32,027 bases of DNA. It comes from Nemertoderma westbladi (taxonomy: Eukaryota; Animalia; Xenacoelomorpha). This document shows positions 1,970 to 32,027 of the stretch, in pieces (within the stretch, counting starts at the first letter, position 1; each line of letters begins with the position of its first letter). A program made the position numbers and the translations under genes. The stretch covers positions 1-32,027 of the forward strand of contig JAUCBJ010004951.1 of NCBI GenBank assembly GCA_032718475.1, given 5' to 3'. The notes below the pieces were generated by a model, which worked only from the letters and a program-made list of their open reading frames with translations, did not search any database and was not told the DNA's origin.

Positions 1970-2178
1970 CATTGCCCTGGGTCTATAGCAATAGTGTCAA
2001 CCGAAATTCCGTCCATCTTCAGGATTTTATCTCTGGAAATGGATTGTTTTCGGCTGGAACCCAGTTCAAGAAGCGAACTGGAAAGCTATGGACTCATAGT
2101 GGACCCAGTGGTCACAAGTCTCAGATAGACCATATTCTGTTTCGTAGGAAGTACAGGAGCTCTCTACAAGATATGTAG
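1970..2178 (+). pseudogene. Non-LTR retrotransposon (RTE-like) AP-endonuclease C-terminal fragment
   Basis: NRNSVHLQDFISGNGLFSAGTQFKKRTGKLWTHSGPSGHKSQIDHILFRRKY matches the LINE endonuclease N.NG..L..F...WT...QIDHIL motif. Confidence 0.8.
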
Positions 2179-2447
2179 AGACACGTTATGTACAATCTTC
2201 TGTACTATTACTCTCCGCAACTCTAGTATCTAGTGGTGCTGGAAAGGTAACTTCTGATTTTAAGCGGAAAAAGATTGTTACTGGAAAGATTTTTGAATTA
2301 TTAATGTCGACTTAATTAATTAATTTCTAATAGCTGGCTTTGTAATTTTGATTGGATCTGTTTGTGCACTAGCATTTATCAATGGAACTGTACTTCTAAT
2401 AATACCTGATCTATTTTTGGATTGGTTGATACTAATGTTAAGCCCAG

Positions 2448-9480: not shown

Positions 9481-9518
9481 ACTCCACGTGGGTTTGTCTG
9501 AGTTCTCAATTACCAAAT

Positions 9519-9574
9519 ATTCAAGTTTATTGAGTTTATTAAGTTTATTGAGTTTATATTAAGTTTATTCAAGT
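9519..9574. repeat. 9-bp minisatellite (ttatt(g/a)agt)n
   Basis: attcaagtttattgagtttattaagtttattgagtttatattaagtttattcaagt. Confidence 0.8.
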
Positions 9575-9858
9575 ACTGCGTGCCGTGCCAGTAGCAGAAA
9601 GCTGCCTGTGCAATTACTTTGGACTCAGGCAGGTGAGTCAAACTGTAAGGCCTACAGAGCTAACCAGTACTGTACCACCAGTACAGCAAATCACCAAATT
9701 ATAGAGTGTGCTATTTGCACCTAGTATATTTACTTGCGCATACTGACAAACAGCATCAGCTCGCACCTATAAGAGATACAGGTTGACCCGGGTTTTTCCT
9801 GTCTGAATCTGAGATATTTGGTCCTAAATTTTATGGCGTCCCAGGACGGCGTCACGCT

Positions 9859-10920
9859 TCACCCTGATCTAAGGAACTTACGGCGGGCAATGGCAGCCTT
9901 CATCATGATCTTCTCCATGTGGGCATATCCTGGCACTAATAAAAGTTTATTCACCCATTCAGGATGGTCACTAAGCAAGTTTAAGGCAAGGGACATAGGA
10001 CTCCCATCCATTACCATAGCCACCCACTCCCTACTGCAGCTCGGGTCACATACACCACTATTTTGCATTGTCCTCTCCATTATAGACTCCACAGCAGCAT
10101 ACGAGCTCAGATCGCCTTCAATGGGTGAATGGACCTGTACATCCGTAAACAGTGGACCAGGGGTGGCTTCAATGGTGCCTCGATCCTCCAACAATGATAT
10201 GAGTCTTTCATACGTTTTGTCATTGAATATCGTTGATTATGACTTGAGGTGACCCTTCAGGACAGATAATTCCGACAGGACAAACAGGGAATGAATCGAA
10301 CTAAACAATGTTTTGTTTTGGTTCAAAAATGAGTCTAGTGTGCTATCTAATTTTTCTCCAAGCTCTAAATGTTTCATGTTCATCTGTTGGTATTTATGTT
10401 TTGGTGGGTGATTAATCGAAAGGACGTTTGTGACCTTTGATACAGGTAGCAGTAGATGTTTTTGATTATATACATGGTACGTTTTACCAACAAACTGCAT
10501 GTTGTCAATTAGTACTGAAATATCTCCATCCCCAAATGATTGTTGAGTATTTGCTGAATATTTCAGCATCCTAGTTACCGTCATGTAACTGAGTAACACA
10601 CTACATTCTCCAAAGTTGCTAGTTTACCATTATATTTGGAGTGTATAGAAGATAATATAAGTTCATATAATTTGACAGCAATAGTTTTAGATCTTTTCGT
10701 TTTAGAGGTCGTCAAATCTTTATTGTCCACACCAGTCAGGTCATACAAAAAATCCCGCACGTCACCTTCCCGAATCACCTTGTCTGGATCATATTCCAAC
10801 AAATCATTTAAATCGTAGCGCGATCTGTTCAACTGGGTGGCACAAATTTCTCGCAGCTTGCTTCCTGGTGATTTAGATCCAGCAGCCACGGTATTATTAC
10901 AGGTGGTGACTGGAGGGGAT
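9859..10920 (-). pseudogene. Disrupted ORF of an unclassified, transposase-like family
   Basis: Three track ORFs join via one frameshift (~10590) and one in-frame stop (10237-10239). Motif SSYAAV...REWVAMVMDGSP...LLLVPGYAHMEKIMMK recalls DUF6589-like repeat-encoded proteins. Confidence 0.5.
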
Positions 10921-11039
10921 TGTGATACAGTAGAAAATATGCTATCAACGAAATTACAGAAACAAATAGCTCAACAAGATCTTGTAGATCCCTTCTTTAT
11001 CATTTAATTTAATCTAATCACACCAATAGTTTAGGCACA

Positions 11040-13101: not shown

Positions 13102-14394
13102 ACTCATATAGCAGCTGTGACTGAGTTGATAGAAGATGATCTTGGTATCAGGGAGCGATATACCTTACCGTTGCAAGCGTTTGTTGATAGCTTAATACGC
13201 GGAGATGCTAGTCCAACTACTACGGAGGACGATGGCCATTATATCGAACCGCCGATGTCCAAGGAACAACTCACGCGTGAATTGGACTATAGAAAATTCA
13301 CCACTTGCTATACGCATTGTAATGGTACATATATGGACTTCTTAACTACTGGTCATCCTATTGATTTACACGATACGGATGATGTAGACACCGAAAGGGA
13401 AATGGTTCTATTTAAATATCATACCCAGCGGAGTCGCAACGACAAACCAAGAATCGAACATGAGAATTCTATTCAAAACCGACTCGAAAGAGAAGACGTT
13501 GAAGAGCCGGATAAACGCAGCGACTTCAACGAATATCTGGAATTCTTGAGAGAAACATATCTCAATATTGCCAGTCAACAAAATCTAGAAACTCGATATC
13601 CTCAAGGTATACATCATGACCCTATGATAGAACTCAAACGGCTCTATTTCAATATGATGTATCTTACCGCCGATCGACCGCTGCCTGTTGTCCCGGATAG
13701 CTTCGAACAGATGGAGGAATATTGTAAAACTGGAGAACGATCACCCGCGTTTCCCCTACAGGACTTGCGTCTTTGGTATTATTGTGATGAATGCCCTAGA
13801 CCCAACCAACAAACGGAAAGACATAAACATCTGCGGAGACGTTGCGCTAAACACAGTCTTACTCGCTATACTTACGGGAGTTTCGAGCGAAATTTGTTCG
13901 ACGTGTCACCTACGCTCGCTCGACTCAAACGATCGGTAAATAAACCCATGATCAGAGTTCCGGAATACTCGGTCAAACCTCCTCATTCCCTAGTGAGACC
14001 TCAAACTCTTGATCCTAATAGTATCACGGATCCTCCCGAACTGTACTCACTGTTCAAAGATTTGGTGTTACCCGAACAATTAATCGGTGGCACTCCGGTA
14101 GTGGGCTCTCTGGACATTCGCCCATCCTACCTAGCCGGATTGGGACGCGGCCATTTAATATCGCCGTTCAACCCTTACAATCGTCCCGGTTTAACCCCGA
14201 TGCAACCCGTCACCGAAGTCAAGGAGAGCATTATAAGAAACGCATTAGACGCTATTCGGCAGAATATCGGAAAAGGAACGTACGATTGTTTAGAGAAACG
14301 TAAATTGCAGCAACAAGTCCAATCGGTGAAGGAGTTGGCCTTACCACAGTTCGATCGAGAAATTCAGAACCTCGAGGAAGACATCGAACTTTGA
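13102..14394 (+). CDS. Orphan ORF, N-terminal part (possible Cys/His cluster)
   Basis: About 430 open codons in a GC-richer block; first ATG at 13255; CDEC...HKH...CAKH cluster. No family recognised. Confidence 0.5.
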   Translation, partial: THIAAVTELIEDDLGIRERYTLPLQAFVDSLIRGDASPTTTEDDGHYIEPPMSKEQLTRELDYRKFTTCYTHCNGTYMDFLTTGHPIDLHDTDDVDTEREMVLFKYHTQRSRNDKPRIEHENSIQNRLEREDVEEPDKRSDFNEYLEFLRETYLNIASQQNLETRYPQGIHHDPMIELKRLYFNMMYLTADRPLPVVPDSFEQMEEYCKTGERSPAFPLQDLRLWYYCDECPRPNQQTERHKHLRRRCAKHSLTRYTYGSFERNLFDVSPTLARLKRSVNKPMIRVPEYSVKPPHSLVRPQTLDPNSITDPPELYSLFKDLVLPEQLIGGTPVVGSLDIRPSYLAGLGRGHLISPFNPYNRPGLTPMQPVTEVKESIIRNALDAIRQNIGKGTYDCLEKRKLQQQVQSVKELALPQFDREIQNLEEDIEL

Positions 14395-14478
14395 CGAACC
14401 TATTCTCTACAAGAGTTTTTAGATGAACGCTTACAAAGACAAGCGGAGGAAAATCAGCTCGAGGAGAAACACATCAAA

Positions 14479-15315
14479 ATGGATGAGAGAGAAGAAGCAG
14501 CTTTAGCCCAACCCAAAGCTCAAATCCTTATGACTGATCTCTATTCCAAAACCATCATTCATCCCTCGATGATTCCCCATTTCGGAGACAAACTCTTCGC
14601 AACGGTACAACCCCAATCGGTTGATATCAACCTAAGATCCCGAGATCTTATCGCTGATGCTCCCATGTTACAGCGTCCACCAATCGAGGCCGCTCGTGTC
14701 GACGGTATACTCGTTGAACCTCCGGACAATCAAGCGGATATTGTCCGTCGTATGGTACACGAGGTCAACATACGCGCTAGACCTCTACCGAACTCGTTTT
14801 ATGGGATCAAAGACCACCCTTATTATGTCAATCTAACTCTGTATTATATGGTAAAATCGGAAGATCCTACCCATAGTCTAAGGTTTCTACCACTAATAAA
14901 TCCTCTCGATCTTGTCGAACTCGAACAATTGCAGAAACATCTGGATCAGTTAGTGAAAGTAAACTCATTCAGAAAACCCTATAATGTTTCCAGAATAGAG
15001 AAGGATATAACGACTCCGTATAATCTCGATGGATTTATTAAAACTCGATTAGTCCATTGGAATCTCGACGTATTATTCGAAGAAGAGAGAATACAAAGAT
15101 ATGGAGATGTAGAGACATATACTACACAGTATCTGAAGTATAGGGATCTCCCTAACGCTAACGAATGCACCACCTTATGGCATCCGGTGGGGATGACCCT
15201 AGAGAACGCCACTACAGAGTGGAACGAAACTCTTAACGTTATCGAAATGTATGGAGTTGTCACTTACGATAACGAGGTAGCGTTCCGGTCGGAGAACTGG
15301 GAACTACGCGCATGA
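14479..15315 (+). CDS. Orphan ORF, same frame as the upstream ORF and separated from it by one TGA
   Basis: 278 aa; the 28 codons 14395-14478 between the TGA and this ATG are open. Confidence 0.5.
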   Translation: MDEREEAALAQPKAQILMTDLYSKTIIHPSMIPHFGDKLFATVQPQSVDINLRSRDLIADAPMLQRPPIEAARVDGILVEPPDNQADIVRRMVHEVNIRARPLPNSFYGIKDHPYYVNLTLYYMVKSEDPTHSLRFLPLINPLDLVELEQLQKHLDQLVKVNSFRKPYNVSRIEKDITTPYNLDGFIKTRLVHWNLDVLFEEERIQRYGDVETYTTQYLKYRDLPNANECTTLWHPVGMTLENATTEWNETLNVIEMYGVVTYDNEVAFRSENWELRA

Positions 15316-15653: not shown

Positions 15654-16556
15654 TGTCTACAATGCCAAAATTGTAAATTAAGTAAAAATTTTTACTGAAA
15701 TTATTAAAATGTTGATTGATTGATGTTCGGAGACAGGGAGGGGGGGACTGGACGCAAATCCCATATATGCGAATTAATATCCCCCTCAATGTTAAAATTG
15801 CAATTTAGGGAAAGGAGCAGGTTACAGTGGCAAGTTATTTTAACCAAAACAATAAACCATATACAATAAAACAGCTTACAGTTTTATTTTTGAATGTTAT
15901 TAGGCTTTATTTGCGACGAATTAATTTATATTGCGTCCAGTTCCCCCCCCCCCCCCCCCCCCCCCCCCCTGGATGTACCACGAGGCATCATCATGTACTA
16001 CTTGGCCTAATTATGATACGTGTGGCATCATGTACTGTAGGCCCTATTAATAATGTAGTGTACAGATACAGTATTTCTATATCTCTCTACATTACTTCTC
16101 ATTGGTTCCAAAATTTCTGCTTGATTCCGATCTCCATACTGTAGTATGGGGGGAGGGGGGGGGGGGGGGGGGCAACCACTATTATTTATGTAATTTATTT
16201 ATTATTTATTTATGATAACATTCTTCTACATTTTTGTTATGTTAAAATATAAGAAGTAATCTTGGACAAAATCTATCTTCTTGTCTAAACTTGAAATCTA
16301 CGGCCGTAATCATTGCTGATATTATGATCATGAAATTTAAGATGAAATCTAATTCAAAATAAAGGACACTATTGTAAGTGACTTACACTTATGTAGATAC
16401 TATAAAGAAGTTAATACTGAACACTGGAATTAAACTGAAAATGAAATCTAAAACCGAAATTACTGAAATTATTTAGGAAACTAAAACTTTAGGATTTACT
16501 CGAACTTCCTGTAGGGACGACTCTAAATTAATAATTCGGCATCCGATACTAATTAT

Positions 16557-19500
16557 TAAACTTGTAGCTAGAACGTCATTTTATGAATAACATATGTAAC
16601 ATAAACGTCATTTTTACATTCGTTTTAATCTTGGACGAAATATAAGCTTTAATCTATGGGGTAGGGACAAATCTAAGCAGAAATCTATGGGGTAATCTTA
16701 GACAAAACATAATCTGAAATCGAAAAAGTAATCTTGGACGAAATCTAACCTCTTGTCTAACTTGATATCCCACACCACAATCTTGGCTTAGATTTATTGT
16801 GAAACCGAAACGGAAATCCAAAGAGTAATCTTGGACAAAATCTAAGCTGAAATCGATGCTGTAATCTTAAAAGCTAAATCTAAAAAGTAATTTTGGATCA
16901 AATCTAACATATCGTATAATTTGAAATCAAAGACCACAATCCTGATTTAGATTTATTCTGAAATCTAAGACGAAATCCAAAGAGTAATCTTGGACGAAAT
17001 ATAAGCTTTAATCTATGGGGTAGGGACAAATCTAAGCAGAAATCTATGGGGTAATCTTAGACAAAACATAATCTGAAATCGAAAAAGTAATCTTGGACGA
17101 AATCTAACCTCTCGTCTAACTTGATATCCCACACCACAATCTTGGCTTAGATTTATTGTGAAACCGAAACGGAAATCCAAAGAGTAATCTTGGACAAAAT
17201 CTAAGCTGAAATCGATGCTGTAATCTTAAAAGCTAAATCTAAAAAGTAATTTTGGATCAAATCTAACATATCGTATAATTTGAAATCAAAGACCACAATC
17301 CTGATTTAGATTTATTCTGAAATCTAAGACGAAATCCAAAGAGTAATCTTGGACGAAATATAAGCTTTAATCTATGGGGTAGGGACAAATCTAAGCAGAA
17401 ATCTATGGGGTAATCTTAGACAAAACATAATCTGAGATCTAAAAAGTAATTTTGAATGAAATCTAATCTCTCGTCAGACTTGAAATCTCGGCTTAGATTT
17501 ATTCTGAAATCTAAGACGAAAACCAAAGAGTAATCTTGGAATATAAGCCGGAATGAAGCCGACTGTTTAGAACCAACAGCGTAATGTATAGTAGTATATA
17601 GATATTCACATACACTACACATGATAACTTCACATAATAGTAGAGTAGTAATTAGTACAAGATACCACATACATCATCAACTTTATATCAGTAAAGATAT
17701 TTACAGAAATTATATTTTACAGTACAGTAAGTGTGCATTGTACTAGATAAACATTCATTGCCAGCTATTCAAAGAATATTTATAGTAATAATAGCTAAGA
17801 GGTACGTACACTTTGAATAATAGTTAAGTGCCGTTCTGGTCACATACATATATCTCTCAGTACGTTTTGCCTACACCTTGATACATAATTATTTAACTTG
17901 TAGCTAGAACGTTATTTTATGAATAACATATGTAACATAAACGTCATTTTTACATTAAGTTTTAATCTTGGACGAAATATAAGCTTTAATCTATGGGGTA
18001 GGAACAAATCTAAGCAGAAATCTATGGGGTAATCTTAGACAAAACATAATCTGAAATCGAAATAGTAATCTTGGACAAAATCTAACCTCTCGTCTAACTT
18101 GATATCCCAAACCACAATCTTGGCTTAGATTTATTGTGAAACCGAAACGGAAATCCAAAGAGTATTCTTAGACGAAATCTAAGCTGAAATCGATGCTGTA
18201 ATCTTAAAAGCTAAATCTAAAAAGTAATTTTGGATCAAATCTAACATCTCGTATAACTTGAAATCTAAGACCACAATCCTGATTTAGATTTATTCTGAAA
18301 TCTAAGACGAAATCCAAAGAGTAATCTTGGACGAAATATAGCTTTAATCTATGGGGTAGGGACAAATCTAAGCAGAAATCTATGGGGTAATCTTAGACAA
18401 AACATAATCTGAAATCTAAAAAGTAATTTTGAACGAAATCTAACCTCTCGTCTAACTTGAAATCTCGGCTTAGATTTATTCTGAAATCTAAGACGAAAAC
18501 CAAAGAGTAATCTTGGAATATAAGCCGGATTGAAGTAGTATATAGATATTCACATACACTACATGATATCTTCACATAATAGTAGAGTAGTAATTAGTAC
18601 AAGATACCACATACATCATCAACTTTATATCAGTAAAGATATTTACAGAAATTATATTTTACAGTACAGTAAGTGTGCATTGTACTAGATAAACATTCAT
18701 TGCCAGCTATTCAAAGAATATTTATAGTAATAATAGCTAAGAGGTACGTACACTTTGAATAATAGTAAAGTGCCGTTCTGGTCACATACATATATCTCTC
18801 AGTACGTTTTGCCTACACCTTGATACATAATTATTTAACTTGTAGCTAGAACGTTATTTTATGAATAACATATGTAACATAAACGTCATTTTTACATTAA
18901 GTTTTAATCTTGGACGAAATATAAGCTTTAATCTATGGGGTAGGGACAAATCTAAGCAGAAATCTATGGGGTAATCTTAGACAAAACATAATCTGAAATC
19001 GAAATAGTAATCTTGGACAAAATCTAACCTCTCGTCTAACTTGATATCCCAAACCACAATATTGGCTTAGATTTATTGTGAAACCGAAACGGAAATCCAA
19101 AGAGTATTCTTAGACGAAATCTAAGCTGAAATCGATGCTGTAATCTTAAAAGCTAAATCTAAAAAGTAATTTTGGATCAAATCTAACATCTCGTATAACT
19201 TGAAATCTAAGACCACAATCCTGATTTAGATTTATTCTGAAATCTAAGACGAAATCCAAAGAGTAATCTTGGACGAAATATAGCTTTAATCTATGGGGTA
19301 GGGACAAATCTAAGCAGAAATCTATGGTGTAATCTTAGACAAAACATAATCTGAAATCTTAAAAGTAATTTTGAACGAAATCTAACCTCTCGTCTAACTT
19401 GAAATCTCGGCTTAGATTTATTCTGAAATCTAAGACGAAAACCAAAGAGTAATCTTGGAATATAAGCCGGATTGAAGCCGACTGTTTAGAACCTACAGCA

Positions 19501-20880
19501 TAATGTGGGGCGAGCCACGAAGTTGGCGGAGCCTTAGCGAATTGACACTGTTAGGGGGTGGGTCAATTTATGCAAATAGTTGTCGTCGTCGTCGTTGTCG
19601 TCGTCGTCGTCGTTGTCGTTGTCGTCGTCGTCGTCGTCGTCGTCGTTACGATTTTGACATGCTAATAACTTTGTCGGATTTAAAGCTGCCAAGTTGAAAA
19701 TTTGTAGGTATCAATATGAGCAAAAGTTGAGATTTTTGAGAGACTTTCAGATACCATCAGTGCAATGGTCTCCCGCTAGAGGGCCACATGTCTAAACATT
19801 AAATGCCCTCCCATTTCTTTGCTTTTAATCCGTTTAAGCTGAAACTTGGCAGATATGTATTAGACCATTAGCTGTGACTTTCAAAAGAGGCGAATCCATC
19901 TGCAGTTCTCCAGTCTGCCGCTGGAGGGCCAACGTGACTATTTGCATAAATTGACCTACCCCCTAACAGTGTCAATTCGCTAAGGCTCTGCCAACTTCGT
20001 GCTGCGCGAAGTCCCCACTTCGTGTATAGTAGTATATAGATATTCACATACACTACATGATATCTTCACATAATAGTAGAGTAGTAATTAGTACAAGATA
20101 CCACATACATCATCAACTTTATATCAGTAAAGATATTTACAGAAATTATATTTTACAGTACAGTAAGTGTGCATTGTACTAGATAAACATTCATTGCCAG
20201 CTATTCAAAGAATATTAATAGTAATAATAGCTAAGAGGTACGTACACTTTGAATAATAGTAAAGTGCCGTTCTGGTCACATACATATATCTCTCAGTACG
20301 TTTTGCCTACACCTTGATACATAATTATTAAACTTGTAGCTAGAACGTTATTTTATGAATAACATATGTAACATAAACGTCATTTTTACATTAAGTTTTA
20401 ATCTTGGACGACATATAAGCTTTAATCTATGGGTTAGGGACAAATCTAAGCAGAAATCTATGGGGTAATCTTAGACAAAACATAATCTGAAATCTAAAAA
20501 GTAATTTTGAACGAAATCTAACCTCTCGTCTAACTTGAAATCTCGGCTTAGATTTATTCTGAAATCTAAGACGAAAACCAAAGAGTAATCTTGGAATATA
20601 AGCCGGAATGAAGCCGACTGTTTATAACCAACAGCGTAATGTATAGTATATAGATATTCACATACACTACATGATAACTTCACTTTTGCCTACCACTTTG
20701 ATACATAATTATTAAACTTGTAACTAGAACGTTATTTTATGAATAACATATGTAACATAAACGCCATTTCTACATTAAGTCAGTCTTAATCTTGGTCGAA
20801 ATATAAACTGAAATCTATGGGGTAAGTTTAGACGAAATATAGCTGAAATCTAAAAAGTAATCTTGGACTAAATATTATCT
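16557..20880. repeat. Higher-order satellite array (359-bp A unit, truncated A', ~380-400-bp B unit)
   Basis: A/A' starts at 16627, 16986, 17345, 17964, 18323, 18906, 19265 and 20400. B blocks at ~17580, 18535, 20023 and partially 20640. Higher-order period 942 bp (17964 to 18906). Confidence 0.95.
19507..20022. mobile_element. Non-autonomous inverted-repeat element (MITE or Helentron/DINE-1-like HINE) inserted in the satellite
   Basis: 65-bp inverted repeats 19516-19580 and 19937-20001 (2 mismatches); (GTC)n at ~19582-19645; hairpin CGAAGT-CCCC-ACTTCG at 20007-20022; TGT on both flanks; empty site at ~17578-17595. Confidence 0.85.
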
Positions 20881-21469
20881 TTCGTCCTACTTGAAATGTA
20901 AGACTGTAATATTGGCTTTGATTTAATTTAAATCTAAGCTGAAATTCAAACAGTCAGCTTAACTTCAGTAAAAATCTTCCAAATAATTATAATTTTGTTG
21001 TGCATACTGGACATTAGGTTACTCATTGCAGGAATATAACTAGTAATTATAGCTAAGTGGATCACTTGGGATTGACAAATATAGTGAATTACCATTCTGG
21101 AATTATATGATCTGAAATATAGATTTTAATCTTGGTCAAAAAAGCATTAATCTACAGCGTACTATAAATCGTAATCTATATAGCAATCTAAGGTGATGTC
21201 CAAGAAGTCTTACCTAAAATGTAATCAAACCTGTCATCACTACAGTGACTTCAATTCTAACTCGCACAAGATGTAAGTAAAGTACAAGCGCTGAATTACA
21301 ACCTAGTGTAGACTCTAATCCGTAATTCGATAAATATTTTAATATTTTTGAATGAATTCATTGGAAATCTATGGCTTTTCAATAAACGACCTCAGTTAGG
21401 GTGTATCATATAACCGTTTTCCCCTTATCCTTTAGTATAACAGGAATCGGCGCAGGGTGCACAGCAATG

Positions 21470-21812
21470 CCTACTATGTACACATAAGTAATGATATGTT
21501 ATACAACTAGGGCGATATCTCGTTGACAAGACCCGGCATCACCCTGCAGAACGCAGAGACGCAGTCTGAAGCTTGTTGGACACTGTTTTCGCTGGAAGGA
21601 TCAACCTGTCTGCAATCTCGTGCTGTGGCATCCTTCCTTCGAGAATAGGTGTGGTGGACAGCTAATGACTTTCCTCAAAGGCCTGCTTAAGGACACCAAA
21701 CTTGAGAATAGGGATGAACTGGAAAACTATATAGCTGAATGTGAAATCTGGGGGCGCTATGTTGTTGCTTCCGACGGCACTGCACCTTAGTTCAAACTGA
21801 TGATCATCATTA
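21470..21812 (+). pseudogene. 3' end of an RTE-like LINE, 5'-truncated
   Basis: Manual translation HISNDMLY...RRSLKLVGHCFRWKDQPVCNLVLWHP...TFLKGLLKDTKLENRDELENYIAECEIW...*, then a short tgatgat tail. Confidence 0.7.
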
Positions 21813-22309
21813 CTATATATAATAAATTCACAAACCAAATTCAACTGTTTACATTCCAAATTTCCGATCCAATAATCATTGCTTAAATAAAACACTCACA
21901 ATAACCGCGTTCAATTGTGTAATTAAGTCACTCTAAATGAACTTCAGTTACTAATTAGTATATCTCAGAATAACACATAACTTGGTGAACTGTATAGTCT
22001 GTCAAAGGCTTGAAATAGAATTTGCATAGAATTATAAAATATTTTTATTGAATATGAACATGAACATGAATTTATTATTATTGGTATGGCTGAATAAATG
22101 TAGTAATATTACTATTAAAATTTGAAGTTAACCACAATGATGTTAGTTTTCGTAAAATCTAAGGCCGATTATTATAAAATTTAGCTCTTTGTATACATTG
22201 GCATTACTTAAAAAATAATAACAGTGAAAAATATACTGTACTTGTACATAAACTATGTATTCTATGAAACTGACGGGAAACCTACCTACTGGCTGACAGA
22301 AGCTCCTCA

Positions 22310-22510
22310 AACATATTGTAATCCGTTAGATATGTATATATAATCCGTTAGATGTTAAACCAATTTTTGGTGAAGACGTTTTGGCTACTTGATAACGTTT
22401 TGGCTACTCGTAGCCAAAACGTTTAAAATCTACCAAAACGTCTACCGCATATAACTTGGAGTAGCTAGAACGTCACTGCATATAACAAATTAAACGTTTT
22501 AGCTACAACG
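22310..22510. repeat. Cluster of short direct and inverted repeats
   Basis: acgttttggctact x2; perfect 14-bp-stem hairpin 22394-22423; taatccgttagat x2. Confidence 0.7.
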
Positions 22511-22655
22511 AATATACATATATATATATATATTATTTACTATAAATACCGGTATATTTTACATTTCATATATTATTATATATGATCCAGTAAACCCGCA
22601 GTACGCCGACAGCCTTACCCGGACATTCAAAATACATAGCGAATAGTCTTCTAGG

Positions 22656-23256
22656 TGTTGCTGTGACAGTGGCTTCACATTCGCTATATAAATATTGCTT
22701 ATTATCAGCCGCTATTAGGTGACATGGCTGCTCATTAATTTACATCCAGGAGGGATCCCGATTTATCCGATGTGGTATTTAGTCCACGCGTCCCTGCCGT
22801 GTATAAGAGTGAAATAAAGATAACTGAGTTCTGAAGTTCGGTGTATAATAATAGGTTATAGGATATAGATATATTGTGAATTATACGGTAGGCGGGATAC
22901 GGTAACTAAAGTCCCGTGATCCCCTAACTAAACTAATTGGCTGTTCCCTACGCTAGCACTGCTGCACTGAGATAACTGAATCACTGATTAATAGGTTATT
23001 GGTTATATTGCACGGTGGCCTTACTGCTACTCAATCGATGCCATTCCCCCCCTCTGATTGGTTAATACCCTTGTTGGCCGTTCACTCCACCTGTTCTCCC
23101 TGGGTTAGGGGTTTGGCCCCTGACCCTCTATTGTGTGCTTCCTTCCCACTCTTATTGGGATGGCACGAGTTGGTTAATTGCCCAATCTCGTGGCTCCCAA
23201 TATTGCTTATCGGCTTACAACTTTATGGGGTTTTGGCGGGATTGAATAAGCTAACA
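22656..23256 (-). repeat. Putative 3' LTR (~601 bp)
   Basis: Minus strand begins TGTTAGC right after the purine tract and can end GCAACA at 22656 (TGTT...AACA). The distal boundary is inferred because the second LTR is not in the window. Confidence 0.6.
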
Positions 23257-23265
23257 CTCCCCCCC
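23257..23265 (-). promoter_or_regulatory. Polypurine tract
   Basis: Minus strand reads ...CAT-GGGGGGGAG|TGTTAG, the typical BEL/Pao G-run PPT abutting TGT. Confidence 0.75.
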
Positions 23266-23965
23266 ATGCTATCTTCCCGGTAAGAAGATAGCATCAACCA
23301 AAAAAGTGCGCTACAATCCCGCTGGATCCCGATCTAGTATCGGGTGTGGGGTGGAATTCTTTTCTCTTGGAGCCGGCTTTCCAGGCCGCCCCCTATGGGT
23401 ATGATAACGCTACCCTGTGTGCCTGGCGTCTCATGTCGGGCCAATCGCGCTCACCTCTTCACGCGATTTTTGTTTCCCCAACACTTTCGCCCTACCTCCC
23501 CTCTACTCTCACCCTAACTCTCTCATACCCCCGGACCTCCTCGTCCCTCACTCAGCCTCTTATTCTCCCCCCCCCCCCCACACTAGAATTGCGTTCGCAC
23601 TCTCTCCGCACTTCACTCTATCCGATTCTCAACTCCACTTTGACTGTTTTATCTCTCCTGACGAACCTCCCCCCCTCTCTCGTGCCGTCGCACTCAAGAA
23701 GTGTGAAATTGTCAGTTGTCTCGTCCATAGTGCCATAGTCAATTGTCCCCCAGTCCCAGTAGCTAATTGAGAAAGGTTGTATGACTATAGTACTTACTCC
23801 AAACGTATGGATTTTACTGCTAATCACTACGTACGTACATACAAATTGCACTTATATGGTTATTTGCATTAATTAAATTTATACTTAATAGTTCGTACGT
23901 TACATGCGGCGCCTTCCAGGCGCACCACTTCCCAGTCTCAGTCTCATTCCCTCGTCTCCGGGAAC

Positions 23966-26500
23966 TTATCTGTTCCTCCTCACGTCCTCTTCCCTGGCCC
24001 GTTTCTTGGTTATCACTGCTCCTCTGGCATCATCCGCTTTCTGCTTCCGGACCTTCGCTGCCACTTCCTTGCTGATCCCGGTCGTCGGCTCCTTGGGCGC
24101 TGGTGTTATTAAAGCCCGATACCGCTTCGCCGGTGGCCCCTCAGAATGGCCTGGTTGTCTCCCTCGTGTGGCGTCCCATAGGATCATCTTCATTGCCTTT
24201 GGTACGTGTTCCGCCAAGAAATCCCTAAACTCCCTCCGGTTCTCTGGTGTCCACCTGTCCAGGTACCGTTGCGTGTTCATAACTCCGGCGAACGATGCCG
24301 CCGTAGCTACCTCTTGATAGGTAAACGGTAACCTTCGCTTTATGATTTCCATGTGGGTCTCCTGGTTTATGAGGAAGAAACCCCACTTGAACTCTTGGGC
24401 CTTCATGCGCTGGCGCGTCATGGCCCCGACGTCGGCCCACTCCTCGAACCTCGTGAACTTCTCCTCGTCGCTCATCCAGTCGCACTCGCGTCCGTAGTGC
24501 CCCCGAAAGTGGCACTTTGGACATCGGTTATGCAACCGTGGACACGCCCCCATCCTGTGACTTGGTTCTCTACAGTAGAGACAAAAGGTTCCCCGTTGGA
24601 ACCGGTATAGGCAGCTGCTTTCCTGATGGGTCTGTCTCCCACAGTAGTCGCAGCCGAGTACCAATGTCTCCCGTCCCACCTCGTCCTTCGTCCCAAGCGA
24701 TCTCCGCGGTCTATGGAGTCGCTGGTAGGCAAACTTCTCCACGTTGCTCTCCCTGTTTACGTCGATCTCTCCGCCCCTCTCGGGCATCGTCTCCCCGAAT
24801 ACTATCCGTGGTGCCGTCCCCGGTTGCTCGCCCAACCTGATGGTGCTCCCCGCGAAATCCATCGCCGGCCCCTCGTGCACCCAGGTCCGCTTGCCGGATC
24901 TGTTCCAGAAGGCCCTCGCCCCACTGGCCGTCACCACCCTTCCGCCAACCCAGTCCGTGTCCGAGTGGCCTATCCTTTCGATGGGCGGCATCTCTCCGAA
25001 CTCGTCGTCGTCGTCCTCCTCTTCTGGTAGTGTCTCCAATCCCGGTATCCCGATGGATCCACTATGTCCCTTCCCGCCTTGGCTCTCGCCCGTAGCTCTC
25101 CATCCCTCTAGCTCCCTTAACTTCCTTGGCGGTTGGTCGCCCTCGGCGCCCGCTGGTATGGGCATCGTTTGCAACCCCGACGTCGACTGTTTCGGCGATC
25201 CCACCGTCCATCCCAATTCTCGTCCTAGAGACTCCCCCGAACTCCCTGACGAAGTCCAATGAAGCTCGTCTAGGCCCGCCTGTTCCTCGAAGCCATAACT
25301 CTGTGTCCTGGCCTCCTCTTCCCTCTCCTCTGCTTCTATCCTCTCCCGTCTAGCGACTTCTTCCAGTCGCTTTGCTTCCCGTCTATCCATCTCTAGCTGC
25401 TCCCATCTCTGATACGGTGTATCTGTCTCCCCATCTACCAGATGTCGGCTGTTGTAGTACACCGACTCGCCCTTCAGCCCCGGGTGGTCTACCAGACCGT
25501 CAAAGGCCGTCTTAAAGGCTCTCCTGTAGCTTAGGGGTGATCCCGATAACAGAAATGCCCCTGGTTCCCTTTCGATAACTACGGTCATGAATAAGTTAAG
25601 CAAACTTATCATCATCCAGTCCTCCTGCAGGATATATCGCTTCTGATATACCTTTATCGCTCCTCTGCGAAACTGATATACCTCCTGCTTTCCCGGTCTC
25701 GCTCCCCACTTCAGCGAGTTCGCTAGTTCTGCTCCGTATTCTTCCCTAAACTTCCCCCAATCCATTGGTTTGTGGCATACGAGCCCCAATAATTGGCCCA
25801 TCGCCACCGCCCCGCATTGGCCTGAGTTCTCGACCACCCCCAATCCATCCGGTGCCGTCATAGCCATAAAGACTTTCTGCATATCCAGGAGGTTGGTGGC
25901 GTCCGGACCGATGATCCTCTCCGCGTCCTCGCGAATCGCCGATCCCACTTTCGTCGTCGACTTCTCTCTTACTAAGACTTGTACCGCTTTCGGCAGTCGG
26001 TCTAATTTCGGCCCGTCCTTCTTCCCATACGTCCCTAGGTCGAATAAGAAGATGTCCCCATTCGGCGCGGCCAAATGTAGGAGTATGGTCCTGGCCGACC
26101 CTGCCGTTCCTCGTCTTGAACCCGCTTCGTCCTCCACGGTTCCCTCGTCGTCTAGGATCATATATCCTCCTCTGTTGACGGACTCTATGAATCTTTTCCA
26201 GTCCTTCCTCGGCGATTCCCTCGGATACTTCGGAATCCCGAACTTCGCTTCGTCCCCTTTCACCACGTAGTGGAAGTGTTGGAAGATCGCGTTGTCCAGC
26301 GACGGCATCCCGTAGGTCCCGACCAACCGCTGTTCGTGCGCCTCCCGGAAGTGATCCTGCAGCGCTCGTGCCGCGTGACCCCTTTTCAACCTCTCGTAGT
26401 ATCCTCTCGTCTTCTCCTCCGGGTGTCTTTCGGTGAAATCCACCAATATTTCTTTTCCTCCTGACTCCGCCTTTCTCTTCCTGATCAGCTTACTCGCCAT
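23966..26500 (-). CDS. Retrotransposon accessory protein: DEDDy (WRN/EXD/Mut-7-like) 3'-5' exonuclease domain plus three CCHC zinc knuckles, 844 aa
   Basis: ATG at 26500 (ggaATGG). ExoI YMILDDEG; LLHLAAPNGDIFLFDL; LPKAVQVLV; ExoII KVGSAIREDAERI; NLLDMQ; ExoIII-like YQKRYILQED. Knuckles CDYCGRQTHQESSC, CLYCREPSHRMGAC and CPKCHFRGHYGREC. Confidence 0.75.
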   Translation of the reverse strand: MASKLIRKRKAESGGKEILVDFTERHPEEKTRGYYERLKRGHAARALQDHFREAHEQRLVGTYGMPSLDNAIFQHFHYVVKGDEAKFGIPKYPRESPRKDWKRFIESVNRGGYMILDDEGTVEDEAGSRRGTAGSARTILLHLAAPNGDIFLFDLGTYGKKDGPKLDRLPKAVQVLVREKSTTKVGSAIREDAERIIGPDATNLLDMQKVFMAMTAPDGLGVVENSGQCGAVAMGQLLGLVCHKPMDWGKFREEYGAELANSLKWGARPGKQEVYQFRRGAIKVYQKRYILQEDWMMISLLNLFMTVVIEREPGAFLLSGSPLSYRRAFKTAFDGLVDHPGLKGESVYYNSRHLVDGETDTPYQRWEQLEMDRREAKRLEEVARRERIEAEEREEEARTQSYGFEEQAGLDELHWTSSGSSGESLGRELGWTVGSPKQSTSGLQTMPIPAGAEGDQPPRKLRELEGWRATGESQGGKGHSGSIGIPGLETLPEEEDDDDEFGEMPPIERIGHSDTDWVGGRVVTASGARAFWNRSGKRTWVHEGPAMDFAGSTIRLGEQPGTAPRIVFGETMPERGGEIDVNRESNVEKFAYQRLHRPRRSLGTKDEVGRETLVLGCDYCGRQTHQESSCLYRFQRGTFCLYCREPSHRMGACPRLHNRCPKCHFRGHYGRECDWMSDEEKFTRFEEWADVGAMTRQRMKAQEFKWGFFLINQETHMEIIKRRLPFTYQEVATAASFAGVMNTQRYLDRWTPENRREFRDFLAEHVPKAMKMILWDATRGRQPGHSEGPPAKRYRALITPAPKEPTTGISKEVAAKVRKQKADDARGAVITKKRAREEDVRRNR

Positions 26501-27012
26501 TCCGAACACTACACTCGCTCACCTGTGGGGTGGTGCCTTACCAAGGCGCAATACAGATGAGTGATGTATTAAGATGTTTCGTACAGTTCGATAATGGCCT
26601 ACTTTTCTACTTAACTGCGCCTTTCAAGCTTAATTTAATCTAATTAATTTCGGAGCTAGTAAATCAGCCTAATTTACAATTTCCGTCCGTTACTTTTATT
26701 ATGTTCTAGAACGACTTTCCTTGTGTTACCACTATTTTTCGATTTTAGCCCTATTCTATTTATTTATTTTATTTTGCTTTGATTCTACTGTCCTACTACT
26801 TACTACTGCCTATGGATTTATTCCATTCTCTCTCTGATCCATATTCTGGCCTACTCAGTGGGCCCATGCAGTACAGCAGTATGCGTCGTGTGGCCACACA
26901 ATTCATCCAGCTGCACTCATATGCCCCCCTCTCGCTACTAACTCTACTTACTGCTAACTAATATCTATATCCTATTTACCCTTTTACCTCTTACTCTCTC
27001 TCTCTAACTAAT

Positions 27013-27870
27013 GGTACTACGTACCCTCTAACTCTAACTCTAACTAGGTACTACGTACCTGCTAACTCTCTAACTATCGGTACTACGTACCCTCTAACTC
27101 TAACTAGGTACTACGTACCTACTAACTCTAACTCTATCTAGGTACTACGTACCTACTAACTCTCTAACTATCGGTACTACGTACCCTCTAACTCTAACTA
27201 ACTATTGGTACTACGTACCCTCTAACTCTAACTCTAACTAGGTACTACGTACCTACTAACTAACTAACTCTAGGTACTACGTACCTACTAACTAACTAAC
27301 TCTAGGTACTACGTACCTACTAACTAACTAACTCTAGGTACTACGTACCTACTAACTAACTAACTCTAGGTACTACGTACCTACTAACTATCTAACTCTA
27401 GGTACTACGTACCTACTAACTCTCTAACTAACTCTAGGTACTACGTACCTACTAACTCTCCAACTCTAGGTACTACGTACCTACTAACTCTCTAACTAAC
27501 TCTAGGTACTACGTACCTACTAACTCTCTAACTAACTCTAGGTACTACGTACCTACTAACTCTCTAACTCTAGGTACTACGTACCTACTAACTCTCTAAC
27601 TCTAGGTACTACGTACCTACTAACTCTCTAACTAACTCTAGGTACTACGTACCTACTAACTCTCTAACTAACTCTAGGTACTACGTACCTACTAACTCTC
27701 TAACTCTAGGTACTACGTACCTACTAACTCTCTAACTCTAGGTACTACGTACCTACTAACTCTCTAACTAACTCTAGGTACTACGTACCTACTAACTCTC
27801 TAACTCTAGGTACTACGTACCTACTAACTCTCTAACTAACTCTAGGTACTACGTACCTACTAACTAACTA
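27013..27870. repeat. Tandem array of 26 palindromic cores GGTAC-TAC-GTACC with (CTAA/CT)n linkers
   Basis: Counted 26 invariant GGTACTACGTACC cores, period about 28-36 bp. Confidence 0.95.
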
Positions 27871-27892
27871 GCTAACTGTGTATCTACTATAC

Positions 27893-27953
27893 TATTATTT
27901 TTATTTTATTTTTATTTTATTTGTATGGGAAGGGCGTTTCGCCCTCAATCCCA
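27893..27953 (-). terminator. Hairpin followed by clustered AATAAA signals downstream of pol
   Basis: Minus strand AGGGCG-AAA-CGCCCT (27945-27931), then aaataaaataaaaataaaataaaaaat. Confidence 0.35.
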
Positions 27954-28002
27954 CCCCCCTCAGTCCAAAACTTGGACGACTAAACCTCACTCTAACTCCG
28001 CT

Positions 28003-31000
28003 CTAAGGTGCTCCTTCTAAGAGACAGCATTTACCTACCGCTCTCCTGTAGGTTTTTCTGTCCTTCGCACCTATCCTTCCACCTATCCGCACTTCTACCG
28101 ATCGGACTCTTCCGTCCTCGTCGGAGTAGGTGCCTACAACTCTCGCCAACCGCCATTGGTTGTTGATGATAGTATCATCCGTGACGATTACGAGATCTCC
28201 CTCTCTCAACTCCCTGTTTGGCTTCCTCCACTTGCTTCGCTTATGGAGCGTGGGTAGGTATTCTTCTACCCACCTCCTCCAATACTCTGCGCTTATTGCT
28301 TTAGCGACTTTCCAACTTTGGCGGGAGTGTATGTCATCTGGGTCTACACCCCGCATATCGATGGTCGCTGGCCTTTCCATCAGAAAATGGCTAGGCGTCA
28401 ACACGTCTAATGACTCAGGGTCATCATTCTCCGGATATAGCGGTCTGCTATTAATTATCCCCTCGCACTTCGCAAGTACTGTCCGTAAGACGTCCTCAGT
28501 GACCATGTGGGTGTTCATTAACTTCGTCATTAGACGCTTTGAACTGCCCACCAATCTTTCGACGCATCCTAGTGTATGTGGTGCATACGGCGTCCGTCTC
28601 TCCCACTTTACTTGTCGTCTCCTCATGGCCGCCCTGACTTCTTCTCCCTCCAAAACGTCCAAGGCCTCTGCCATCTCATTCTCTGCGCCCACAAAGTTGG
28701 TGCCGTTATCGCTATATATCACTGCGATCGTCCCACCTTTGCGGTCCCTGAACCTTTCTAAGGCGTTAATGAACGCTGATGCGGTTGCATCTTGGGCGAG
28801 TTCTATCCCCACCGCCCGCGTATTGTTGCATACGAAGATAATGCCGTAACATTTCTCCGTGTGTCGCATCACTTTGATCTTTATCGGCCTGAACATGTCC
28901 ACACCGCAATGCGTAAATGGCGGGTCGTGCTGTCTTACCCTACTCGCCGGTAGTGGCGCCATCTCCTGTACGGCTCGTTCCTTCTTCGCTCGTCGGCAGG
29001 TCTGGCACTGCCCCACTACCGCTTTAACCTTCTTCCTTAGTTGTTTGACCCAATAGGTCCTTCTTATCTCTGTGAGGGTTCGGTTGGTGCCCCCATGCAA
29101 TATCGATTTATGGGAGTCCCATATAATCTTGTGGACTATAGGCGATCCTGTGGGAATGATGATGGGTCTCGGTGGCACGACTATACTGTTGTTATATCCC
29201 ACCCTAGAATTCATTACTAGAATCCCATCCTCGTTGAGTTGTGGCGACAGCGTAATCAACTCGCTGTCCCGTCGGAGGTGCTGTTGGTTGCCGACACGTT
29301 CCACCTCGTCGCCGTAGTTCTTCCGTTGTTCATAGCGGATTACTGCCTTGGCCGCTCCTTCCAGATCTATGGTTGTCCTGGTCTTCTTGTCCTTGCCGAC
29401 TCCCGCAAGAAAATTCCCAAAGGCTCTCCAGTACGCCACTAGTTTCTTGGTCTTATACCAACTAGAACTGTAGCTGAGGAGTTTATCCGTCGGGTTATCG
29501 CACAGTTCCCTTCCTGGTTGCACGTCCCTAATCTCCCTCACCATCTGGGAGTATATCTCTTCTCCCTCCGAATCTCCCTCTTCTCCTTCTGATACTACTT
29601 CCGAGCCCGGGTCCACCTTTCTCATCGGCGGCCAGGCCTCCCTATCGCTCAGAAATTGTGGCCCATGTTGCCACAACACTTCCTTCTTCAGGAAAGTGTG
29701 GCGTTCCACGCCCCTCGACAGCAAGTCCGCTGGGTTCTCGTCTGTTGGGCAGTAGTGCCACCTTTCTAGTTCTGTGGTTGCTCTTATTTCGTCCACTCTA
29801 TTTGCGACGAATATTGGGTATCTCGTCCTCTCGTTGTGTAGCCAACCAAGCACTACCATGGAGTCCATCCAGTAGTGTGTCTCCACTATGTTGGGAATTG
29901 TATCCACTAGGTAGGCTGTGGCTCTAACTCCTAGTCTCGCAGCTGTCAATTCTAACTTGGGAACAGATGCTGAATCTGGCGGCGTTGACTTAGCTTTGCT
30001 AAAGGCTAGTCTGGGCTTGTGAGGCCCCTCTCGTTGTACTAAATAGAGTGCCGCTCCGTATGCCTCTAACGACGCGTCGGAGAACATATGTAAGTCCAGA
30101 TTCGTCATGTTCCCGTCCGGGAAATACACTCGCGGCATGTTGTATGTTCCCATCCTCTCCAAGTCTCCTGTCCATTTGCTCCACTGTTTCTTGATGTCCT
30201 CTGGTACCTCTACATCCCACTCATCCTTCAGTTTATATACTCTCTTGAGTATCTGTTTCCCCGTGACTAGTAGTGGGGATGCTAGGCCTAGGGGATCATA
30301 TATCCTTGCTATATACGATACATAACCCCTCTTCGTATGGGTGTCTGCGCCCTCCTGGCTCAGCTGATACTTCAGTTCGTCTGTTTTCCTATCCCACACG
30401 ATTCCCAATGCCTTCTGCTGGGATTCCGTTCTCTTAATCGCCATGTCCTGTCCTTTGGCTGTTGTAGGGTTGTCCATGGTCGATTCTGGTTTCTTGTCTT
30501 CTATTTCCTTGATAAATTCTTCTGAACTGGATTGGAATTTGGTCAGGTTGAAGCCGGATCCTTTCAGGATGTCGCGAACCTCGCGCCCTGTTTCCAGTAT
30601 CTCCTCAACCGTATTTCCAGACTCCATACCGTCGTCTACGTAGAAGCCGCGTCTGATCATATCGACGGCCCTACTGCTATATCTATCTTCCTTCCCCTTT
30701 ACCGTGTCTCTCACTGCCATAGTCGTCGTAAATGAGGACGACTTGGCCCCCATGTTTTGTACTACCATCTTATATGCCGGTATTATAGGCGGTTCTTCTT
30801 CGCCGTTATACCATAAGAAGCGTTGACTATCGCTATCTTCCTCTGTTACTCGGACTTGGTTGAACATGCCTTCTATGTCACACGTGAAGGCGTGTTTCCC
30901 ATTCCTAAATCTAAGTAGTACTTCTATGCCCGAATTGTAAATATTTGGGCCTTCCAACAGGTAATCGTTTAAGCATTTTCCGTCGGTCTTTGCCGATGCA

Positions 31001-32027
31001 TCGACTACCATCCTCAGTTTACCTTTCTTTGGGTCTAATGCTACGTGGAGTGGCAGGTAGTATGTCCTGTCAGTGTTCGGTTCGTCGACCGGTAACTCCA
31101 CGGCCCATCCCTTCTCGACGTACTTCTTGATCATTTTGTGAATGTACTCGTTCTTCTCGGGGCTCCGTTGTAGTGTTTGTTTCAGCTTGGGGAGTCTCGT
31201 GAGTACCATCCTTCTATTATCGGGTAGCGGTATCTTCGGTAGTTTCCATACCATTCCTATTGTATACCGCCCCTCATCACACGTCATCGATTCCTCCACA
31301 CTTTGTAGAGCCTGCTTGTCTTCTACCGAGGTCCCGACCCCTGTCTCTTTCAGTCCCTCGAAGTCTTGTCTGAGCAGTCTTTTAAGCTGCTCCTCTGCTC
31401 CCTCGTCACCTATTTCCTGCATTGTTCCCGCGAACATGCATCCTGATGTCTCCGACATCCTGAATGGTATCTTGCTCTTAATTGGACCACTCAACGTCCA
31501 CCCGAATGGCGTTAATATGGCCACCGGGTCGCTCTGCTTGTCTTCGCCAAAGACCGTTTGCATTCTCTCGTGGGCCGTTGGGCAGTCCATGCCTACTATG
31601 ATGGATACCTTCCTAACGTCCACGTCTGGGATTGAGAAGTCAATGTTGTCCAGGAATTTGTATTGCTCGACCTCGATGTTGGTTGGCCGCCTGGCATTGA
31701 TGTTAATTGACTCTATTACTTGGATGGGGTCGATGGTTGCCCCATAATCGCATCCTGGTGCCACTGCTGCAATTGCGCACCGTCCTGTCCTCATCTCTAG
31801 GATCTCGTCTTTGCTAGAGATGGTTGTCACCGCCATCCTGCTTGGCCTCGTTCTCAACCCTATTTCTTCGGCTACCCATTCCTCAACTAATGTGAAGGCA
31901 GCTCCACTATCAACCAGCATTAGTGTTGTTACTGATCGATTGCCTTCCCCGATCACTCGTACTGGTACTACTCCAAGTAGCACTGTTCCTCTCTTCTTCG
32001 CCCCTATTGTGCTCGTTGCCATCGTCT
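28003..32027 (-). CDS. pol: BEL/Pao Pol polyprotein (protease, RT, RNase H, integrase, C-terminal domain), open to the window edge
   Basis: MLVDSGA (protease); KLRMVVDAS, DIEGMFNQV, FYVDDG (RT); IYDPLG, FSDAS, PKLELTAA, WMDS, NPADLLSRG (Pao RNase H); H..HGG..CQTC, GVDMF, SDNGTNF, VERLV (integrase); LTPSHFL, W..EYLPTL..R.KW. No stop in more than 1339 codons. Confidence 0.97.
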   Translation of the reverse strand, partial: TMATSTIGAKKRGTVLLGVVPVRVIGEGNRSVTTLMLVDSGAAFTLVEEWVAEEIGLRTRPSRMAVTTISSKDEILEMRTGRCAIAAVAPGCDYGATIDPIQVIESININARRPTNIEVEQYKFLDNIDFSIPDVDVRKVSIIVGMDCPTAHERMQTVFGEDKQSDPVAILTPFGWTLSGPIKSKIPFRMSETSGCMFAGTMQEIGDEGAEEQLKRLLRQDFEGLKETGVGTSVEDKQALQSVEESMTCDEGRYTIGMVWKLPKIPLPDNRRMVLTRLPKLKQTLQRSPEKNEYIHKMIKKYVEKGWAVELPVDEPNTDRTYYLPLHVALDPKKGKLRMVVDASAKTDGKCLNDYLLEGPNIYNSGIEVLLRFRNGKHAFTCDIEGMFNQVRVTEEDSDSQRFLWYNGEEEPPIIPAYKMVVQNMGAKSSSFTTTMAVRDTVKGKEDRYSSRAVDMIRRGFYVDDGMESGNTVEEILETGREVRDILKGSGFNLTKFQSSSEEFIKEIEDKKPESTMDNPTTAKGQDMAIKRTESQQKALGIVWDRKTDELKYQLSQEGADTHTKRGYVSYIARIYDPLGLASPLLVTGKQILKRVYKLKDEWDVEVPEDIKKQWSKWTGDLERMGTYNMPRVYFPDGNMTNLDLHMFSDASLEAYGAALYLVQREGPHKPRLAFSKAKSTPPDSASVPKLELTAARLGVRATAYLVDTIPNIVETHYWMDSMVVLGWLHNERTRYPIFVANRVDEIRATTELERWHYCPTDENPADLLSRGVERHTFLKKEVLWQHGPQFLSDREAWPPMRKVDPGSEVVSEGEEGDSEGEEIYSQMVREIRDVQPGRELCDNPTDKLLSYSSSWYKTKKLVAYWRAFGNFLAGVGKDKKTRTTIDLEGAAKAVIRYEQRKNYGDEVERVGNQQHLRRDSELITLSPQLNEDGILVMNSRVGYNNSIVVPPRPIIIPTGSPIVHKIIWDSHKSILHGGTNRTLTEIRRTYWVKQLRKKVKAVVGQCQTCRRAKKERAVQEMAPLPASRVRQHDPPFTHCGVDMFRPIKIKVMRHTEKCYGIIFVCNNTRAVGIELAQDATASAFINALERFRDRKGGTIAVIYSDNGTNFVGAENEMAEALDVLEGEEVRAAMRRRQVKWERRTPYAPHTLGCVERLVGSSKRLMTKLMNTHMVTEDVLRTVLAKCEGIINSRPLYPENDDPESLDVLTPSHFLMERPATIDMRGVDPDDIHSRQSWKVAKAISAEYWRRWVEEYLPTLHKRSKWRKPNRELREGDLVIVTDDTIINNQWRLARVVGTYSDEDGRVRSVEVRIGGRIGAKDRKTYRRAVGKCCLLEGAP

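Follow-up and report, generated by a model that had tools for sequence, protein, structure and literature searches.

BEL/Pao elements are treated as plain gag–pol elements, with env as an occasional addition. The rotifer elements Juno and Vesta are of the Ty3/gypsy type, VANDALs are DNA transposons of plants, and Egalitarian is an RNA-binding pseudo-nuclease. As described by Rodriguez, Kenefick and Arkhipova (2017, PMC5408684), the LTR retrotransposons Juno and Vesta and the Athena/Terminon elements of bdelloid rotifers carry a DEDDy ORF3; the same report describes EXD1 as an RNA-binding pseudo-nuclease. DEDDy domains are also described for the Dada transposons (PMC3706591), and for such ORFs the available texts of PMC6431247 and PMC6338049 point only to the rotifer work. 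Concerning cellular enzymes, the zinc fingers of Trypanosoma brucei RNase D are described as supplying RNA binding and boosting 3' trimming (PMC7797062).

The window analysed here is a stretch of 32,027 nucleotides of Nemertoderma westbladi DNA; coordinates refer to it, and all features lie on the minus strand except the repeat array, to which no strand is assigned. It carries an LTR retrotransposon with a second open reading frame (ORF2) which is a real, old and apparently uncatalogued accessory gene of BEL/Pao elements. The self-contained accessory system which the first-pass annotation had seen in this element is mostly real, as one conserved gene (ORF2) and one local repeat, not as a two-part module.

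Element layout, copies and repeat array

The order of the parts on the minus strand is pol, a 26-copy repeat array, ORF2, a hairpin, a polypurine tract (PPT) and the start of the LTR; every part of this layout, including an 844-aa ORF on the same strand, had been listed in the first-pass annotation and was confirmed. The pol gene (28003–32025) is a 1340-aa open frame that continues past the window edge on its 5' side; also beyond this edge lie the 5' LTR, gag and the target-site duplication. Based on Pfam, the domains of pol are, in order, protease, RT, Peptidase_A17 (E 1e-39), integrase and DUF5641 (E 8.7e-24), with an RNase H region (PR-RT-RH-IN), and pol has no dUTPase match. The carrier is a BEL/Pao LTR retrotransposon: the pol order, Peptidase_A17 and the C-terminal DUF5641 are all found. 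Between the array and ORF2 lies a non-coding spacer (26501–27012). The boundary between CCCCACAG and the GTGAG which follows it, about 25 nt before the ORF2 ATG, is a possible splice acceptor; among 25 relatives inspected by eye, no common acceptor before ORF2 was evident. Rfam gave nothing credible over 22000–28200 and ARAGORN found no tRNA.

On the other side of ORF2, a perfect 11-bp hairpin (23266–23294; RNA fold of 23250–23320, z −3.7) stands immediately before the PPT GGGGGGGAG (23257–23265). The PPT directly adjoins the 3' LTR, which starts with TGTT at 23256, and this is the PPT-then-TG order of BEL/Pao elements. The 3' LTR (22747–23256) has an uncertain far end, between about 22730 and 22771. 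The earlier placement of this end at 22656 finds no support: the repeat depth in two DNA runs begins only in the bin 22730–22763 and is zero over 22560–22729, and one contig tracks the window over 22544–22746 and then departs. A TG..CA-type LTR end is available at 22771. Coverage holes, such as the zero depth left of 22730, can stem from filters and leave the LTR end uncertain; a length of about 490–510 bp is more likely.

The element is a high-copy one. In the contigs of three DNA runs from two samples, pol, the array and ORF2 are covered about two orders of magnitude deeper than the left flank. In run X1 the depth is 57,585–95,796 over pol, 30,854–68,730 over ORF2 and 270–924 over the left flank (20802–22405); contig depth is not a copy number, and the values for ORF2 and pol are comparable in magnitude. 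A form lacking both ORF2 and the array is also present: one contig each in runs X2 and X3 joins 23482/23488 to 27988, at a depth of about 90. We read this joined form as a rare deletion derivative.

The array (27013–27870) is a minisatellite of 26 units of 28–36 nt, delimited from the sequence and from unit-skipping joints in other copies. It contains 26 exact copies of GGTACTACGTACC at 27013–27857 (chance expectation 0.39 matches even at two mismatches). Each unit forms an inverted repeat whose 7-bp arms are interrupted by a 3-nt loop, so the 26 copies described earlier stand, while they are not strict palindromes. The 13-nt core is invariant in 26/26 units; the spacers vary and are TTAG/GAG-rich on the sense strand. 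Several contig joints skip or repeat units, which indicates that the length of the array differs among copies. Hairpins with a C-GTA-G triloop are unusually stable in single-stranded DNA, and for this reason an invariant core with variable spacers may be the outcome of expansion by slippage.

The ORF2 protein, its relatives and their trees

ORF2 (23966–26500; ATG at 26500, stop at 23966) encodes 844 aa with no internal stop. It comprises an exonuclease domain, a low-complexity linker, three CCHC knuckles and a conserved C-terminal block. The exonuclease domain (residues 60–335; 25496–26323) was delimited by a predicted model, fold matches and a profile match. The model built on 70 aligned rows has a pLDDT of 81.4 and a pTM of 0.83; a single-sequence model has a pLDDT of 33. 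The top fold match is Nibbler (Z 15.0, rmsd 3.2, 201 residues aligned), followed by WRN (14.2), apPol (14.1), RNase D (13.2), T. brucei RNase D (12.6), Egalitarian (12.6), Rrp6 (12.3) and EXD1 (12.2). WRN and apPol are within 1 Z of Nibbler; since the top rows are tied in this way, the donor gene cannot be named, and the lower-ranked Rrp6 is still a candidate. Foldseek places Egalitarian–RNA complexes first, and a profile of 47 exonuclease domains matches EXD2 (E 8e-12). In the ESM Atlas the exonuclease part scores 0.93 to a cluster which has PF01612 on 34% of its members; the matches for the knuckles are all below 0.9 and serve as leads only. The domain is thus predicted to be a DEDDy-type exonuclease of the DnaQ/RNase D fold. 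The acidic set of this copy is D117, E119, D192, Y289 and E293, in which the fourth acidic site is Glu and not Asp, as it also is in the four nearest homologues (P0125, P0126, P0129 and P0131). The full acidic set is kept in only 33 of the 70 aligned rows, and DxE in 40.

The three tandem CX2CX4HX4C zinc knuckles (residues 617–673; 24482–24652), were seen in the sequence and in the alignment: all 11 invariant columns of an alignment of 36 proteins (ORF2 and 35 longer homologues) fall among them, and a conserved F..FAD.G..T..R...WGF block comes next. All 36 proteins have the three knuckles and most have an N-terminal exonuclease-like block. The model, the fold matches and the sequence bear out the nuclease fold and the zinc knuckles attributed earlier to this protein. 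ORF2 has no match in Pfam, and a word-indexed search returned no near homologue. No transmembrane segment was found in ORF2; with a highest 19-residue hydropathy of 1.3 and no Pfam match, an env role was rejected.

Homologues were found by other searches. An unindexed search of 1.84 billion representatives gave 74 at E<=0.001. A degenerate pattern for knuckles 2–3 matches once in the window and never in 100 shuffles of it, and the knuckle pattern scan yielded 120 metagenome loci from 26 of 64 parts scanned, 80 of them with flanks. The knuckle profile matches 116 of the 120 loci, including 76 of the 80 with flanks, and the exonuclease profile matches 56 of those 80. A knuckle motif scan of viral contigs gave 0 matches, and in a single-protein locus search of metagenomes 0/106 pattern matches were confirmed. 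The names of the homologues are uninformative and almost none has a Pfam match, which is why annotation pipelines miss them.

Of the 76 flanked loci that are positive for the knuckle profile, 43 have a same-strand gag-pol gene upstream. The proportion is 37/43 for the loci with at least 3 kb of upstream sequence and 31/33 for those with at least 4 kb (the two exceptions are L005 and L012). ORF2 is therefore a standing part of many elements and not the one-off nested insertion that the first-pass annotation had kept in view. The pols of the relatives are BEL/Pao by Pfam (26 long ORFs, 10 with Peptidase_A17 and two more with DUF5641 but no Peptidase_A17), and their RT is 25–30% identical to that of the window. 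On two contigs (L033 and L006) ORF2 is followed by an LTR-like stretch ending in CA, a TGGCGCC primer site and gag; therefore, ORF2 is inside the repeat unit. Together with the position of the window's ORF2, on the same strand between pol and the PPT and LTR, this upholds the earlier placement of the gene within the element. The gag proteins retain their own knuckles in 10/10 relatives checked (DUF1759 in four), so the knuckles of ORF2 are extra.

Concerning the trees, the ORF2-bearing loci fall on one side of a branch that separates them from the best BEL/Pao matches of the window (26 vs 120, support 95); with 24 loci and 20 chosen matches the support is 92. The pol of the window, itself on a long branch, falls outside the 24-locus clade and is separated from it by one other long row. 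A tree that groups this pol with the ORF2-bearing loci is not rejected (AU p 0.22), which does not by itself prove a single origin. The ORF2 of the window groups with P0125, P0126, P0129 and P0131 (support 94). For the 21 elements present in both trees, pol and ORF2 distances are correlated (Mantel rho 0.86, 0/2000 permutations), and 10 of the 11 pol splits with strong support are also present in the ORF2 tree, with no conflicts. As judged from sequence, the agreement of the trees shows vertical co-inheritance of pol and ORF2, not co-adaptation.

Concerning the catalytic residues, DxE is missing in 9/9 aligned members of a pol clade of 11, and the full acidic set is found in 7/7 aligned members of another pol clade of 9. 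The dN/dS of ORF2 is 0.06–0.46 in 27 of 31 pairs of relatives (the other four are saturated); these values are rough: most pairs approach saturation in dS, there is dependence among the pairs, and neither the ORF2 of the window nor a close relative of it is represented. Pairs with dead sites are included, such as L039/L033 (0.17) and L066/L037 (0.25). At the codon level, ORF2 in the relatives is thus shown to be under purifying selection, even in the branch lacking the catalytic residues. Because the gene is retained after catalytic loss, binding is suggested as its core function.

Candidate roles of ORF2 and of the array

CCHC knuckles usually bind single-stranded RNA. Our tentative best explanation, which we hold at somewhat less than an even chance, is that the ORF2 protein binds single-stranded RNA, grips RNA 3' ends and shields the transcripts of the element from host small-RNA silencing or decay. 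Beyond the layout, recurrence, co-inheritance, selection, predicted fold and dead branch reported above, we infer the mechanism as follows. The knuckles would bind single-stranded RNA and would pass its 3' end on to the nuclease pocket, in the way of T. brucei RNase D; catalytic branches would trim the RNA, whereas dead branches would only hold it, and the target would be either a silencing RNA of the host or RNA of the element itself. RNA is an inferred substrate here, as the fold is common to DNA exonucleases (WRN, Z 14.2; apPol, Z 14.1). Also counting against this explanation are the incomplete acidic sets in many aligned rows, the Glu at the fourth site of this copy, the long pol branch of the window and the joined form without ORF2 and array. 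A more specific proposal, which we consider rather unlikely, is that an old and undescribed BEL/Pao lineage encodes a mimic of host small-RNA trimmers (Nibbler/EXD-like, with added knuckles) which would trim or sequester piRNA or siRNA intermediates, with one branch as a catalytically dead decoy. If true, this would be a case of an animal retrotransposon that encodes its own suppressor of RNA silencing. Viral DEDD nucleases are described both in proofreading and in immune suppression (PMC7968707), and for this reason the DEDD fold does not decide the function.

The steady vertical inheritance is as compatible with a housekeeping role in the element cycle as with an arms race. It is possible, though we would not expect it, that ORF2 is such a housekeeping factor, which would bind the genomic RNA and trim, chaperone or transport it (in the manner of Egalitarian on stem-loops, or as a second nucleocapsid) with no anti-silencing activity. 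The strict co-inheritance with pol, the invariant cysteines and histidines of the knuckles, the dispensability of catalysis in one branch, the first place of the Egalitarian–RNA complexes in Foldseek and the strong hairpin just before the PPT are all consistent with it. Also, 3'-end processing of element RNA is listed first in Rodriguez 2017 (PMC5408684). Such a function is not essential, however, as most BEL/Pao elements described in PMC3118150 consist of gag-pol only, and an unsystematic look among the relatives identified no shared RNA element. A role on DNA in reverse transcription or integration, by proofreading or by trimming of single-stranded cDNA ends, seems unlikely to us, as the gene stays under selection in an entire pol clade that has lost the catalytic residues (9/9 aligned members lack DxE) and the knuckles are of a type that usually binds RNA. 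What speaks for such a role is that the exonucleases of WRN and of family-A polymerases tie among the highest-ranking fold matches, the proposal that the DEDDy domains of Dada transposons process 3' DNA ends (PMC3706591) and the proofreading described for nidovirus ExoN (PMC7968707).

The first-pass annotation had compared ORF2 and the array to VANC and the VANDAL repeats, as a trans-factor and its cis-array; the protein would then bind the hairpin array sequence-specifically and reverse silencing. The data do not support this module, and we regard it as very improbable. Among the 41 relatives with the pol end and ORF2 on one contig, none has an array of any sequence between the two: only micro-repeats and short repeats of 2–3 copies are found there, and the gap from the pol stop to the ATG is usually 100–800 nt, compared with 1502 in this element. 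The co-occurrence of pol, array and ORF2 proposed as a check thus holds for pol and ORF2 (31/33 loci) and fails for the array (0/41 relatives). The core motif is found in 0/120 metagenome loci, and the sequenced part of the element has no further copy of it, the 3' UTR and the LTR included. The domains of ORF2, moreover, point to single-stranded nucleic acid. In favour of the module are the invariance of the core in an array with variable spacers, the high depth of the array in three DNA runs, and the great variation of VANC targets between related elements, which makes differing motifs expected (PMC5735166). Short-read contigs may also break at arrays, which biases the census of relatives against them; the inspected 5' ends of nine contigs without a pol match show no hairpin array. 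The array is likely a family-specific variable minisatellite expanded by slippage and not a required target of the ORF2 protein, and it could conceivably act locally in the splicing or transcription of ORF2. For tandem repeats in the 3' regions of LTR elements, a literature search for precedents yielded no more than one review. A reading of ORF2 as a neutral passenger or as a one-off nested insertion is hardly credible. ORF2 has neither a Pfam match nor a near homologue in the word-indexed search, and the joined form without ORF2 exists; against this, the position is the same in 31/33 informative loci, the trees are congruent, dN/dS is well under 1, and the depth over ORF2 is of the same order as that over pol. 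The one-off insertion was rejected, being largely refuted by the loci, the trees and the dN/dS.

In a deep set of BEL/Pao elements, selection maintains a second gene which is not env; the pol and ORF2 trees match, and active branches are paired with dead ones. This offers a natural comparison for the question of whether animal retrotransposons encode factors against small-RNA silencing or for the handling of RNA of their own. The rotifer paper (PMC5408684) also raised this question and, in its available text, left it unanswered.

Comparison with known systems

Like the canonical BEL/Pao elements of PMC3118150, the element has a gag-pol with Peptidase_A17 and DUF5641, BEL-type gag knuckles (in the relatives), LTRs and a PPT. 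Unlike them, it has an extra non-env ORF of 2–4.7 kb, and in the available text of that survey the word 'exonuclease' occurs 0 times. The likeness to VANC and VANDAL is that one element both encodes an accessory protein and has tandem repeats in non-coding sequence (PMC5735166). The differences are that VANC is described there as binding DNA motifs, whereas here the relatives have the gene but not the repeat, and the encoded protein combines a nuclease domain with knuckles.

Based on fold and profile, the closest proteins to ORF2 are Nibbler/mut-7, EXD2, WRN, EXD1 and Egalitarian, with an identity of only 10–21%; the pseudo-nucleases EXD1 and Egalitarian resemble the catalytically dead ORF2 branch. 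T. brucei RNase D (PDB 7C42; PMC7797062) has the same succession of a DEDDy exonuclease and CCHC zinc fingers (fold Z 12.6). It is described as a cellular guide-RNA trimmer whose four fingers adjoin the nuclease, while the three knuckles of ORF2 are about 280 residues downstream of it, and the sequence match of the knuckles is weak (E 0.6). The resemblance is best called a likeness of design.

The architecture had been presented in the first-pass annotation as possibly undescribed. The literature already has a DEDDy ORF 3' of pol from rotifers (PMC5408684); for the BEL/Pao or three-knuckle form, a search of accessible papers, without Repbase, Dfam and GyDB, found no report of a DEDDy-knuckle ORF. 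Like the ORF3 of Juno and Vesta described in PMC5408684, the DEDDy ORF follows pol on its 3' side, shares its strand and occupies the env position within the LTRs; it likewise has no transmembrane segment and an altered motif (DEED in rotifers, DEDE here). Juno and Vesta have a GPY/F integrase and a dUTPase, whereas the carrier here is BEL/Pao with no dUTPase match. Concerning zinc-binding motifs, the only one given in the available text on the rotifer elements is a Cys-His-Cys motif of Vesta2 and Vesta5 (PMC5408684), while ORF2 carries three CX2CX4HX4C knuckles and, after them, a conserved C-terminal block. ORF2 is further set apart from the rotifer ORF3 by its vertical inheritance across a deep clade and by a catalytically dead branch which is under selection.

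Variants of the window's element

Contigs of the sequencing runs X1 and X2 skip 972 nt within ORF2 (window 24196-25169); the skip is in frame and takes out the knuckles and much of the ORF2 linker. In two runs the stretch 23240-23440 of the window, with the hairpin, the PPT and the 3' UTR next to them, is covered at several times the depth seen over ORF2. This excess may reflect abundant non-autonomous derivatives; depth is a poor measure.

Relatives of ORF2

Enlarged versions of ORF2 (1300-1600 aa), which carry long N-terminal extensions, are found in four metagenome loci: L005 (40-4815), L051 (5002-9657), L043 (1226-5476) and L015 (335-4318). The Pfam scan of these long versions gave no match in L005, L051 and L043. 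L051 also contains a second unannotated ORF of 1589 aa downstream of its long version. The knuckle block is present twice in the homologous protein P0122. An ORF2 homologue with degenerate catalytic sites is located on the minus strand of L008 (1481-3001) and is also found in L032 and L072, the three being 99.7-99.8% identical. MITE-like repeats surround it and its upstream DNA has no pol match; it is possibly a fixed host copy.

Other features of the window

The plus strand contains a broken RT-bearing element at 1798-3500 (RVT_1 at 3017-3403, E 2.2e-6), which is probably a LINE, and two long open stretches of 430 and 306 aa in the same frame at 13102-15315, separated by a single stop and without a Pfam match. 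Fragmented Helitron-like coding pieces lie on the minus strand at 3730-4900 (Helitron_like_N at 4515-4898, E 4e-4), with possible further fragments at 8331-10970 on the same strand. A complex AT-rich satellite occupies 16245-20930; its 359-bp units are composed of ~36-bp subunits and are nested within 942- and 1494-bp duplications. Inside this region, at 19516-20001, a GTC microsatellite is flanked by a 65-nt inverted repeat.
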